From: a bacterium
Lineage (GTDB): Bacteria > Zhuqueibacterota > Zhuqueibacteria > Oceanimicrobiales > Oceanimicrobiaceae
Assembly (NCBI GenBank): GCA_037446635.1
Contig: JBBIIG010000040.1
Location: forward strand, 16,565-34,752
Length of the DNA stretch: 18,188 bases
Direction: 5' to 3'
Shown here: piece after piece, positions 3,765-6,042 of the stretch
How positions within the stretch are numbered: position 1 is the first letter of the stretch
Layout: each line of letters opens with the position of its first letter
The notes under the pieces: model-generated
Database searches by the model: none
The model's input: only the letters and a program-made list of their open reading frames with translations
What the model was told of the DNA's origin: nothing
Translations under genes and position numbers: made by a program

Positions 3765-3790
3765 GTAACGCAACATTAATGTTGCGTTAC
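3765..3790. repeat. Perfect 26-bp palindrome (GTAA/GTAG-type REP-like) overlapping the vWA gene stop
   Basis: GTAACGCAACATTAATGTTGCGTTAC is its own reverse complement. Confidence 0.75.
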
Positions 3791-6042
3791 AACATCCCCT
3801 TGCGTTTGCGAATCAGCCACTCGGCGCTGAGCAGCAGAATGCAGGTAATCAGCAGCGGGGTCTTATTCCAGATTTCCCACTCGTTTTTGATGACCACAAA
3901 TTTTTCGTTGAACTGCAAACGTTCGCTGAGTCGGCTAACCTCCTCGGGGGTGAAATAAGCGCCGCCGCTTTCCTCGGCGATTCGGCGCAGCAGCTCCTCA
4001 TTCATGCGCGTGTCCTGAAATTCGAGGTTGAATTCTTCCACCGAAAATTTGCCCTGGTCGCGGCCGAGCACCCGGCCCTGCAAGTGCGCTGAGCCGGTGA
4101 ATTCATAATCGCCGCCCTGCAGCACTTCGAGGCTGCCTTCGTAGCGGCCTCCGCCGATTCCCTTCAAAGACAGCTCAAACGTCTCGTTGACATCGCGCAC
4201 CTGCACCACCACCTCCGCGCCGTCCACCGGCTGGAAGTCCTCAAAATAAACCTGCGCCGTGAACTTCACTTTTTCGCCGCTGCGGTAAACTTCTTTGTTG
4301 GCGGCGATGCGCACCGGCTTGCTGTCCTCCTGACTCACCAACCAGCGGATGGTATTTTGCAGAAAGCGGTGATAGGCCTCGCTGCTTTTACCGACGCCGG
4401 TCATCAGCAAGTCCCAGCGCCAGAGACCGTAGGCCAGCACGGTCGCCGATTTGCGTTTCCCCGAGGTCTGGCAAACGATAATCGGCAGCGATTGCCGGCG
4501 CGCGTCCGGAGAACGGTTAACATCGCTGGCCGCCAGCGACTGCGCCGAGGGGTGGAGCGGCGCGTAATTCAAGATGGTGAAAATCGGCGGCAGCTCCAGC
4601 CAGCGCTCGCGGTTTTCCACCTCATCCTCCGAAAGCCGGAAAATGGGATGATGCATCCCCTGCGGCAGAACGGCCGCATACACGACTCGCTCGCTGCCTT
4701 TGGCTGGCTTCGCGGAGAACGGCAAAAAATCGCTGAGCTGCCAGAGTTTGTCGAGATCAACATTTTTTCCAAAAATCAAAAACAGCGGCTTGCCGGCGGC
4801 CAGCAGGCTTTTGATCCTGGTGATGGATTCCGGCGCCGAAGTGCGGCGGGGGAAGTCGAGCAAAATCACCGCATCCGATTTCGCCAACTCCTCAGCTGTT
4901 GGCATGCTCGCGCGGCCGTAAAATTGTCCGTCCTTCTCAACAAAAGCCTGCACTGCGACGTTTTGATCCGCGGCAAGACTGCGCTTGAGAAAATTGAAAT
5001 CGGCGCTGGGCCCGCCGGCAACCATCAGCACATCTAATTTGCTCTTCAGCACCTTCACATAAAACGGCCGCGTGTTGTTGACGTCGGTGAGCTCGCCCTC
5101 CAATTTCGGCAGCTTGATTTCGTATTTGAACAGCCCCTCCTGTTCGGGGGTGAAAAGCAGCCGCACCCGCTGTTCGAGTCCGCCGCCGGATAACTCCACC
5201 ACTTTCGAGTCCAGCGTGCGATTGCCCTGAGTGAGATTCACCGGCAGGCGCCGGCCCTCGAAGCCGCTGCTTTTAATGTACACCTCCACCGGAATTTGCG
5301 CGCCGGCGTAGGCGATTTCGTTGGTGACAAAGTTGGAGATCAAAACGTCGCGCTGCTCGGAGGGATCGCCAATGCCAACCGCATGAATTGGGACGCCGTA
5401 CTCGGAGGCGTATCGCGCCGGATTTTCGCCTAAATTATTCGCGCCATCGCTGAGCAGAACCACGGCGGCAAAGTAGCGGTCGGTTAATTTCTTTTTAAGT
5501 TCATCCAGCGCGCCGCGGATATCGGTGCCGTCGCCGTCGGCGTGCAGCGTATCCGGCGGAGATGACGTTCCTTCCTGCAACTGCGCCGCGAATGGGTAAA
5601 AAACCATTTCGTATTCATCGGAACGCCTGCGGAATACGTCCGATTGCAGCAGCGATTGCAGCACCTGCCGGCGATCGACTTTTCCGCGAAGCGGATCGCC
5701 TGCCTGCCCGCGCAGGCGGGCCTGCGTCCGCGAAGCGGATCCGCCTCTGCGAACAGGCAGGGTGTCCGATTGATCCACCAATCCCATGCTGGCCGACTGA
5801 TCGATAAGCACCGCTACCACGGGTTTATCCGCTTTTTTGCGAGTGAGGCTCAAAATCGGCTCGAACAGCAAAAGCACCAGCAGCATGGCCGAGAGCGCGC
5901 GCAGCGTCATCAGCAAAAAGCGCAGGCGGTTGGAAACCGGCGGCGTCGTGCGGCGATAAACGAAGTAGCTGAACGCCGCGGCGGCGAGCAGAAGAATCAG
6001 CAAGGCAAAACTGCCGGTGGTGGTGAGGTTGATTTGGGGCAT
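3787..6042 (-). CDS. Membrane-anchored vWA-domain protein with Ig-like and class I GATase-like (DUF1355-like) domains
   Basis: Two N-terminal TM helices; MIDAS DQSASM, T in GTDIRGAL, LLSDG; PIHAVGIG; later LWRW...FLQNTIRWL and LRRIAEESGG; C-terminal TM ending EWLIRKRKGML. Carries an 87-bp in-frame palindromic insert at 5683-5769. Confidence 0.85.
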   Translation of the reverse strand: MPQINLTTTGSFALLILLLAAAAFSYFVYRRTTPPVSNRLRFLLMTLRALSAMLLVLLLFEPILSLTRKKADKPVVAVLIDQSASMGLVDQSDTLPVRRGGSASRTQARLRGQAGDPLRGKVDRRQVLQSLLQSDVFRRRSDEYEMVFYPFAAQLQEGTSSPPDTLHADGDGTDIRGALDELKKKLTDRYFAAVVLLSDGANNLGENPARYASEYGVPIHAVGIGDPSEQRDVLISNFVTNEIAYAGAQIPVEVYIKSSGFEGRRLPVNLTQGNRTLDSKVVELSGGGLEQRVRLLFTPEQEGLFKYEIKLPKLEGELTDVNNTRPFYVKVLKSKLDVLMVAGGPSADFNFLKRSLAADQNVAVQAFVEKDGQFYGRASMPTAEELAKSDAVILLDFPRRTSAPESITRIKSLLAAGKPLFLIFGKNVDLDKLWQLSDFLPFSAKPAKGSERVVYAAVLPQGMHHPIFRLSEDEVENRERWLELPPIFTILNYAPLHPSAQSLAASDVNRSPDARRQSLPIIVCQTSGKRKSATVLAYGLWRWDLLMTGVGKSSEAYHRFLQNTIRWLVSQEDSKPVRIAANKEVYRSGEKVKFTAQVYFEDFQPVDGAEVVVQVRDVNETFELSLKGIGGGRYEGSLEVLQGGDYEFTGSAHLQGRVLGRDQGKFSVEEFNLEFQDTRMNEELLRRIAEESGGAYFTPEEVSRLSERLQFNEKFVVIKNEWEIWNKTPLLITCILLLSAEWLIRKRKGML
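5683..5769. mobile_element. Nested cluster of four miniature palindromic elements inserted in-frame (24+18+18+27 bp)
   Basis: Outer TCCGCGAAGCGGA.TCG|GTGTCCGA; inside it CCTG|CCTGCG|CAGGCAGG (a perfect 18-bp palindrome when rejoined); inside that CCTGCCCGCGCAGGCGGG (5703-5720) and TCCGCGAAGCGGA.TCCGCCTCTGCGAA (5727-5753). Removal restores DQSASMGLVDQ-KVDRRQVL. Mobility is inferred. Confidence 0.75.

Follow-up and report, generated by a model that had tools for sequence, protein, structure and literature searches.

The window analysed here, an 18,188-nt stretch of DNA, corresponds to positions 16565-34752 of contig C40 in a draft bacterial genome (G000; 4.64 Mb, 110 contigs, 52.5% G+C), and the subject of this report is an 87-bp block of palindromic sequence inside one of its genes. 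Positions without a contig number refer to the window; other loci of G000 are given as contig and position. The host gene encodes a 751-amino-acid (aa) membrane protein with two hydrophobic helices at its N-terminus and a DQSAS motif in a vWA-like domain, and the insert follows residue 91. The label vWA-like is based on the DxSxS motif, on weak Pfam scores and on the source names of homologues: Pfam matches of the host protein (P0001) were sub-threshold, the homologue P0003 reached 23.9 bits for PF00092 against a cut-off of 23.8, several homologues carry precomputed PF00092 or PF13519 assignments, and homologues are named 'VWA domain-containing protein'. Other domains dominated the matches when the full-length model of the host protein was used in a fold search. 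The features of the locus are listed below, with ^ marking an insertion point here and throughout.

3787..6042, minus strand: host gene (751 aa, membrane protein), from the open reading frame (ORF) list and a custom gene caller.
5679..5682, plus strand: CTTT, the preferred target tetranucleotide, directly 5' of element A and kept in empty sites.
5683..5769, no strand assigned: nested stack of 87 bp, minus-strand residues 92-120, from base-by-base reading and a script.
5683..5698, plus strand: left part of element A, the hairpin TCCGC-GAA-GCGGA followed by TCG (base reading and script).
5699..5702, no strand assigned: piece 1 of element B1, CCTG (script).
5703..5720, plus strand: element B2, CCTGCCCGCGCAGGCGGG, 18 bp, with two mismatches to B1; the variant also occurs at C4:12464 and C8:35751.
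5721..5726, no strand assigned: piece 2 of element B1, CCTGCG (script); CCTGCG^TCCGC is a recurrent junction of B with an A' inside it (B::A').
5727..5753, plus strand: element A', 27 bp, with the hairpins TCCGC-GAA-GCGGA and TCCGC-CTCT-GCGAA (base reading and script).
5754..5761, no strand assigned: piece 3 of element B1, CAGGCAGG (script).
5762..5769, plus strand: right part of element A, GTGTCCGA, which closes the hairpin TCGG-TGT-CCGA (base reading and script).

A first-pass annotation, made from the sequence alone, had read these 87 bp as four tiny palindromic elements placed one inside another with no base left over, and a script re-derived the same parse: A (24 bp), B1 (18 bp), B2 (18 bp) and A' (27 bp) add up to 87. 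Joined across the interruption, 5683-5698 and 5762-5769 give the complete element A, TCCGCGAAGCGGATCGGTGTCCGA (24 bp), and the three pieces of B1 give CCTGCCTGCGCAGGCAGG (18 bp), which is identical to its own reverse complement; the perfect palindromy of B1 and the two mismatches that separate B2 from it were both verified. The repetition of CCTG allows more than one placement of the B1/B2 boundary. The minus-frame translation of the insert is SDTLPVRRGGSASRTQARLRGQAGDPLRG. When 5683-5769 was removed in silico, the script restored ...LIDQSASMGLVDQKVDRRQVLQSLLQS, and the host sequence after removal reads LIDQSASMGLVDQKVDRRQVLQ. The folding energy of the isolated block was only modestly unusual (z = -2.7) and is not what makes the observation strong. 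Within the host gene, just downstream of the insert in the protein, 5641-5665 holds an 11-nt direct repeat at 12-bp spacing (CGATTGCAGCA twice) that codes for LQSLLQS; it is probably an ordinary internal repeat, because orthologues carry similar residues.

Both palindrome families proposed in the annotation were present genome-wide, and there were in fact more than two. The exact B 18-mer occurred at 37 loci in G000 and the 15-nt core of A, TCCGCGAAGCGGATC, in 49 copies, with no match in the backward-read control of either. With mismatches tolerated, we counted 82 copies of B, 33 of the 24-bp A, 15 of a 26-bp A' and 22 of a 28-bp relative, A'', again with all reversed controls at 0, which is dozens of copies per family. 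These copy numbers are far beyond chance. The A-type units consist of two adjacent hairpins, which in A' and A'' have an identical stem. The A' family is mostly 26 bp long, and its 27-bp form was seen in the window and at C17:2831. A is also found alone as a 24-bp unit and, according to the flank listings, every sub-unit of the stack exists solo elsewhere. An Rfam search returned nothing above threshold, with generic hairpin matches below it. The most frequent 12-mers of G000 come from arrays with an 8-bp period (TCCATTAATCCA and its kin, in up to 125 copies), and several other palindromes, among them GGGGCGATTCATGAATCGCCCC and AACCCTGWCAGGGTT, are frequent too.

The nesting postulated for the window recurs repeatedly at fixed internal sites. 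B lies inside A after TCG in the window and at C7:103701, C11:86175, C13:70346 and C99:2173, and A' lies inside B after CCTGCCTGCG at C2:57409, C9:71028, C12:54692 and C32:23664. B also occupies the first hairpin of A-type units, where it follows either GAAG or TCCG, and the loop of A'', and A'' is itself nested in still other hairpin repeats. Composites bounded by both ends of A measure 42, 60, 70, 87, 99 and 117 bp, those inside genes being 42, 60, 87, 99 and 117 bp long. The full-length 87-bp block is unique in G000, and its first 29 nt are 100% identical to C9:96141, C63:2070 and C51:22552. A second deep stack, of 117 bp with diverged A ends, occupies C43:20186-20302, in frame within a 646-aa ORF, where it reads SDSLPGRSGESASRTQTRLPEASGLPVQTGGQAGEPLPG.

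Empty and INTERMEDIATE alleles of the host locus were sought in 40 relatives, whose orthologues align to approximately residues 3-91 and 121-751 of the host protein, the two pieces abutting in the target DNA. All 17 family-level orthologues with a readable N-terminus lack the insert and read ...SASMxLxDQ^KxxR. When database homologues of the host protein were aligned, 10 of 11 were likewise empty. The eleventh, P0002 (78% identical), reads VDQ-SDTDPLRG-KVGR, and SDTDPLRG is the 8-residue minus-frame translation of A alone. Both the empty state and the 24-bp state that the annotation had asked for thus exist at this locus, the latter at the protein level. A scan of metagenome contigs with P0002 returned relatives at 58-64% identity, not the contig of P0002 itself.

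Direct evidence at the DNA level came from a congener, G001 (74% complete, approximately 80-86% nucleotide identity to G000), which carries 16 exact B copies and 6 A cores. Ten of the 16 B loci were spanned by alignments to G000: five correspond to clean 18-bp gaps in G000, three to split gaps that total 18 within diverged flanks, and two are shared. The six A loci comprised two clean 24-bp gaps, one pair in which A faces an A containing B (A::B), one messy case and two without a spanning alignment. The A versus A::B pair is located at C13:70346, where G000 has A::B and G001 has A alone; the difference is exactly 18 bp and represents a nested intermediate in DNA. In the reverse direction, a 24-bp A (on C3) and a 60-bp composite (on C32) of G000 are precisely missing in G001, and two more composites of G000 gave no clean alignment.

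Target duplication was found neither at the nine clean filled/empty pairs of the two genomes nor at the nested sites, where B merely interrupts the ATCG^GTAT of A, in keeping with the annotation, which had seen no obvious duplication. A reading of B as a 16-bp core with a duplicated GC target was ruled out, because insertion lengthens ATCG^GTAT by exactly 18 bp and duplicates nothing. At positions -4 to -1 on the 5' side of solo A (n = 24), the commonest bases were C (19), T (17), T (20) and T (16), often with xAAA on the 3' side. This CTTT is retained in the empty alleles (on the other strand, ...^AAAG); the site in the orthologues is Q^K (AAA/AAG), and that in the window is GACTTT^TTGATC. 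In G000, B is preceded by G in 44 of 60 cases and followed by C, G and A in 47, 34 and 36 of 60, respectively, whereby its palindrome is extended.

The genic or intergenic position of each copy was assigned with the custom gene caller, a crude one that called 3708 genes, gave 87% coding sequence and recovered the genes of the window. B was genic in 49 cases and intergenic in 33 (n = 82). The 24-bp A was genic in 12 and intergenic in 11, with one copy at an edge (n = 24), and A::B was genic in four and intergenic in one. The corresponding numbers were 4 and 11 for the 26-bp A', and 3 and 19 for the 28-bp A''. When length modulo 3 was compared between coding and intergenic copies, as the annotation had proposed, the families whose length is a multiple of three stood at 65 genic to 45 intergenic versus 7 to 30 for the 26- and 28-bp families (Fisher p = 2e-5). 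Among the length forms of B, the 18-bp form was divided 16 to 23 and the 19-bp form 1 to 16. The phase of 33 genic B copies was also biased (p = 1e-7), with xLPAQAG read in 26, CLRRQ in 4 and PACAGR in 3. Stop codons were absent from all six frames of every unit and of the 87-bp block, which is unremarkable for short G+C-rich sequence.

The first-pass annotation had held that each element is a multiple of 3 and that each insertion step preserved the frame. The former is true of the units in the window (24, 18, 18 and 27 bp) and fails for the families at large, in which 26 bp is the common length of A' and A'' measures 28 bp; the latter is reflected in the length and phase bias within genes, and because the 26-bp A' and 28-bp A'' copies are mostly intergenic, this bias looks like a survival filter. 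Judging from lengths and positions, the multiples of three would be the survivors inside genes, not the design of every family. Splicing or bypass would leave the length and phase bias without a reason; the inserts, including the 29-residue one, are therefore very probably translated. An AlphaFold2 model built from a 12-sequence alignment had a mean predicted local distance difference test (pLDDT) score of 68 for the host protein, and residues 91-121 scored below 50, had no secondary structure and lay between a strand (75-81) and a helix (124-132). The model fits an insert that would form a tolerated loop beside the metal site. Two housekeeping genes carry B in frame: carA at C5:69863, which reads PLPAQAG after TYPLIGNYGVPC, and mnmA at C22:21083, which reads SLPAQAG after GQRKGLGI. 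Compared with solved homologues, CarA shows a gap of 4+1 residues, in a variable loop, at the B-coded stretch.

The two families differ in their distribution. Across 167 genomes from the phylum, the A core was found 49 times in G000, 6 times in G001 and as single matches in three genomes of one other genus, whereas exact B was found 37 times in G000, 16 times in G001, 8 times in G047, which belongs to another class, and once in G135. The B copies of G047 are intergenic and lie beside other small hairpins. In a collection with one genome per prokaryote species, the exact B 18-mer was present in at least 124 stretches, against approximately 9 expected by chance by our own estimate, which assumes uniform base composition. 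The B-bearing records among the matches listed included many Patescibacteria lineages, Bacteroidota, Gammaproteobacteria, Terriglobia, WOR-3, an ignavibacterium and others, and in these other phyla, among the matches listed, B was flanked by R and Y and often lay in A+T-rich surroundings. It was also present in 29 stretches of viral contigs. As a whole, these counts point to A as a lineage-specific family and to B as a cosmopolitan one. Matches to the A core in viral contigs (at least 120 stretches) were discarded, since the second hairpin was present in 0 of 120, the chance level for a 15-mer. In four Patescibacteria records (L100, L111, L112 and L116), exact B is flanked by ...GCCGGRTCR and TCTAATGGTAGGA..., which resemble the 5' part of a tRNA gene; from this resemblance, B may interrupt tRNA genes in those genomes.

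The annotation had named no system matching this size and nesting. One can be named: Elhai et al. (2008, Genome Res 18:1484) reportedly described the small dispersed repeats SDR1-8 of Nostoc and relatives as gene-less, hairpin-forming units of 21-27 nt inserted into each other. By that description, the SDRs of Nostocaceae appear to be the closest named precedent. The present units are likewise very small, hairpin-forming, gene-less and dispersed, at 24 bp for A, 26-27 for A', 28 for A'' and 18 for B, they insert into one another in the combinations listed above, as SDRs are said to do, and both kinds insert exactly at a short target. They differ in the phylum of their host, an uncultured bacterium that is KSB1-type by the names of homologues, in including an 18-bp unit, in having many in-frame genic copies and in the cross-phylum occurrence of B, a distinction that compares descriptions and not the SDR sequences. 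SDR5 inserts exactly between nucleotides 3 and 4 of HIP1 (PMC4390886), and another survey reports no SDR-like repeats outside Nostocaceae among HIP1-rich cyanobacteria (PMC5861425).

Other comparisons are less close. REPs carry a GTAG or CGTC tag and are mostly extragenic, with some inside genes (PMC3733652). They resemble the present units as palindromes of 20-40 bp in many copies, and G000 has RAYT-like genes with flanking palindromes of their own. However, A and B lack the GTAG/CGTC tag (A starts with TCCGC after CTTT, and B has G on its 5' side and CGA on its 3' side), the majority of B copies (49 of 82) are genic, no Y1 gene whose flanks were viewed has A or B beside it, and REPs are not characterised by systematic nesting or an in-frame filter. 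Rickettsia palindromic elements (RPEs) are approximately 150 bp long (PMC10969869) and carry a CGTC tag (PMC3733652). They too are palindromic, lie in frame in many unrelated genes and are read through as extra peptide, but they are far longer than the 18-28 bp seen here, and Russian-doll stacks of several families do not appear in the available parts of their descriptions. Miniature inverted-repeat transposable elements are defined by terminal inverted repeats, target-site duplication and a length of 70-300 bp, whereas our units are below 30 bp and show no duplication. IS200/IS605 elements move by single-strand 'peel and paste' transposition, with hairpin ends in place of terminal inverted repeats, no target duplication and insertion 3' of a fixed tetra- or pentanucleotide. 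The insertion of A 3' of CTTT without duplication and the hairpin ends recall this; the elements here are transposase-free, approximately 30 times shorter and, in G000, accompanied by no cognate Y1 gene that we could find.

Double-hairpin elements of fungal mitochondria, which Paquin et al. are said to have described in 2000, and mitochondrial GC clusters are also small GC-rich hairpins that act like mobile elements and favour short target sequences. They differ in residing in organelle genomes and in their unrelated sequences, and the fungal mitochondrial GC42 cluster differs further in having duplicated AG target nucleotides (Wu & Hao 2015, PMC4478555). Finally, Ssn (family cd10448) is an approximately 100-aa single-domain GIY-YIG nuclease of single-stranded DNA whose associated small hairpin repeats, NTS/SRM, measure 20-50 nt and number in the hundreds (Chenal et al. 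2025, PMC11893778), and the NTS repeats are rarely genic (2%; PMC11893778). The first hairpin of A resembles the NTS core in its stem and GAA-type loop, and G000 has three mini GIY-YIG genes. On the other hand, A and B fall outside the SRM motif, and Ssn is a nuclease for which the accessible part of that report does not show movement of DNA. In the literature we did not find the B 18-mer as a string or such elements in this phylum, a search whose coverage was partial and which does not prove absence. The kind itself, very small mobile palindromes that nest, is known from one cyanobacterial family; new here are the other phylum, the strong in-frame genic population, the direct filled, empty and nested allele pairs and the cross-phylum unit.

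Taken together, we consider it quite probable that the 87-bp block consists of nested, tiny, gene-less palindromic elements that were inserted without target duplication and are likely copied as single-stranded hairpins. In the sequence of events that we propose, A (24 bp) would have entered 3' of CTTT first, and a B unit would then have inserted into A behind TCG; another B-like unit and A' would have come to lie inside B, either in place or before the arrival of B. Copying to new sites would take place as single-stranded hairpins, by an enzyme encoded elsewhere. The insert would be read as a 29-residue, predicted-disordered loop separating the metal-site loop from the domain's first helix, and selection would likely keep those genic inserts whose total is a multiple of 3 and whose peptide is harmless (LPAQAG for B, SDTDPLRG for A). 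We also entertain, though we stop a little short of believing it, the bolder proposition that B ranks among the smallest known mobile DNA elements: an 18-base palindrome identical across many phyla and in viral contigs which, in this genus and together with the genus-specific 24-base double hairpin A, has a length divisible by three that permits colonisation of ORFs and the building of Russian-doll stacks.

The annotation had proposed serial insertion of the elements into one another. At least two steps are supported, and four separate steps in situ are not demonstrated; the inner 63 bp may have been pre-assembled. According to this alternative, which we regard as a real possibility short of a likely one, the elements are mobile, but after A the inner 63 bp (B with a B-like unit and A' inside it) arrived as a single composite moved by the ends of B, or through gene conversion from another composite with A ends. 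Composites with A ends recur at 42, 60, 70, 99 and 117 bp, B::A' recurs on C2, C9, C12 and C32, the first 29 nt of the block have their perfect matches on C9, C63 and C51, and only the 24- and 87-bp states were seen at the host locus, all of which would be in line with import of a ready-made piece. Yet the full-length 63-bp and 87-bp sequences are each unique in G000, the C13 locus provides a single-step pair of A and A::B, and each sub-unit also occurs solo.

An explanation without any transposition, in which the palindromes are functional tags (sites for uptake, a nuclease or a regulator) that spread by mutation, selection and homologous recombination in the manner of DNA uptake sequences, seems improbable to us. 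It would account for the perfect preservation of B at two orthologous sites despite diverged flanks and for its identity across phyla, and hairpin repeats can indeed be nuclease sites that modulate transformation (PMC11893778). However, what separates the two genomes in alignable coding sequence is whole blocks of exactly 18, 24 or 60 bp and not point changes, the copies are nested in one another, and their flanks are unrelated.

That the stack is an artefact of assembling or binning a metagenome-assembled genome is very unlikely. G000 is a 110-contig draft, repeats break assemblies, and an independent contig begins exactly at 5684. Nevertheless, that separately assembled 269-nt contig piece, from hot-spring runs X1/X2, spans 5684-5952 with 5 substitutions and 0 gaps, the reading frame and codon phase are kept, and the same families and nestings are present in G001. 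The run shares examined were 0.15, 0.15 and 0.08, and X3 gave weak pieces only. The confirmation by reads that the annotation had called for was thus obtained in part, with 5684-5952 covered gap-free and the left junction unbridged. In the contig of this near-identical strain, a 5752 A->G change restores GCGGA and with it the second hairpin of A'. A local origin of the block in the host gene, by slippage, hairpin-templated duplication or low-complexity expansion, might be suggested by its 15-nt direct repeat (5683-5697 and 5727-5741) and its GC-rich, self-complementary nature, but is already contradicted by dozens of copies of every unit at unrelated loci and by the empty and A-only sites of relatives, and can hardly be entertained.

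Several observations weigh against nested insertion of mobile elements as the account of the block. The 24-bp allele of P0002 is known from protein only, and outgroups polarise insertion over deletion at the locus of the window only. The two shared B copies (C20:5537 and C3:34065 versus L034 and L045 of G001) are identical at 18/18 positions between flanks that are approximately 86% identical; this could reflect conservation, gene conversion or recurrent insertion into a single site. The identity of the first 29 nt with three composites means that part of the stack may be pre-assembled or gene-converted. No run contig crosses 5682/5683, the left junction, and much of 5350-5680 is uncovered. 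The genic and intergenic counts depend on the crude custom gene caller, the B-coded stretch of MnmA aligns to native residues of distant homologues with no clean 6-residue gap, and the low pLDDT of the insert comes partly from the gapped alignment. The remaining points concern the mover, the search for which yielded no mobilising enzyme. A and B were absent from the flanks of the three Y1_Tnp genes viewed in G000 (the fourth, on C2, lies in no called gene, and its flanks were not viewed), and none of the four Y1 proteins tracks B across G001, G047, G135, G002 and G048. Within 450 bp of the three mini GIY-YIG genes there is no A or B, except for an A''-variant beside the gene on C94, and none of 55 A cores and none of 82 B copies overlaps a match to the published SRM motif.

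On the present evidence, then, the candidates for an enzyme that would move the nested palindromes remain tentative. Hairpin ends, a fixed 5' target tetranucleotide and the lack of duplication are the signature of single-strand Y1/HUH transposition, and the likeness of A and B to such systems is a resemblance in apparent mechanism, not membership. Four Y1_Tnp (RAYT-like) genes were detected in G000. Three of them (C29:28020-28598, C76:11021-11644 and C35:26341-26889) each lie between copies of a palindrome family of their own, which is of the AAGTGCCAGGCACTT type on C29, the GTAG type on C76 and the GCTGAAGC...GCTTCAGC type on C35. Only the C35 protein has an orthologue (91%) in G001. The foreign palindromes that flank these three genes, and a distribution unlike that of B, spoke against the RAYTs as mobilisers.

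The three mini single-domain GIY-YIG genes of G000 have UPF0213 proteins as their nearest solved relatives. One of them, at C94:20-480, encodes 78 aa and lies directly behind an intact tRNA-Ser(TGA) gene; downstream of it comes a partial copy of this tRNA, which carries the 28-bp A''-variant in its anticodon loop (CTTG^AAAA). A tRNA-Ser-like sequence at C90:12480-12560 is broken by the same A''-variant insertion, and ARAGORN called no tRNA there. The SRM motif (HGTCWY...RNCYNB) had 46 matches in G000 versus 10 in the reversed control, stemming from another repeat family; none abutted any of 55 A cores (2 lay within 100 nt), and none came within 600 bp of any mini GIY-YIG gene. NCBIfam, consulted in the same check of a link to Ssn, gave nothing above its cut-offs. 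A-type units stand directly after an NTS-like hairpin (...CCCGCATGTTTTTAGCGGGAGTCTAT), between its two inverted copies, at C2:191381, C9:96141, C51:22540, C51:27659 and C63:2058, and all five fail the strict SRM motif; the family behind the 46 motif matches is related to this hairpin. The misfit of A and B to the SRM motif and the SRM-free surroundings of the GIY-YIG genes spoke against a link to Ssn. By analogy, a Y1/HUH hairpin transposase acting in trans, RAYT- or IS200/IS605-like, would be a conceivable if doubtful mover. A small GIY-YIG hairpin nuclease combined with host repair is an unlikely one, and an activity of some other kind may well be responsible, although we hold this with little confidence.

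The usual view is that mobile DNA requires ends of approximately 100 bp or more. In G000, units of 18-28 bp act as insertion elements, nest at fixed positions and occupy approximately 60 of 3708 called genes without breaking them, adding short loops to proteins that include the housekeeping enzymes CarA and MnmA. A single genome pair displays empty, singly filled and nested sites alongside a clear filter on frame and phase, and constitutes a clean natural experiment on selfish DNA versus protein evolution. The cosmopolitan B and the genus-specific A point to an enzyme activity that is as yet unrecognised and travels horizontally, and an enzyme able to place an 18-base hairpin exactly, duplicating nothing, might also prove useful as a tool. 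If B is indeed a minimal mobile element, the clean filled and empty sites of the congeners would make a possibly new transposition chemistry directly testable.

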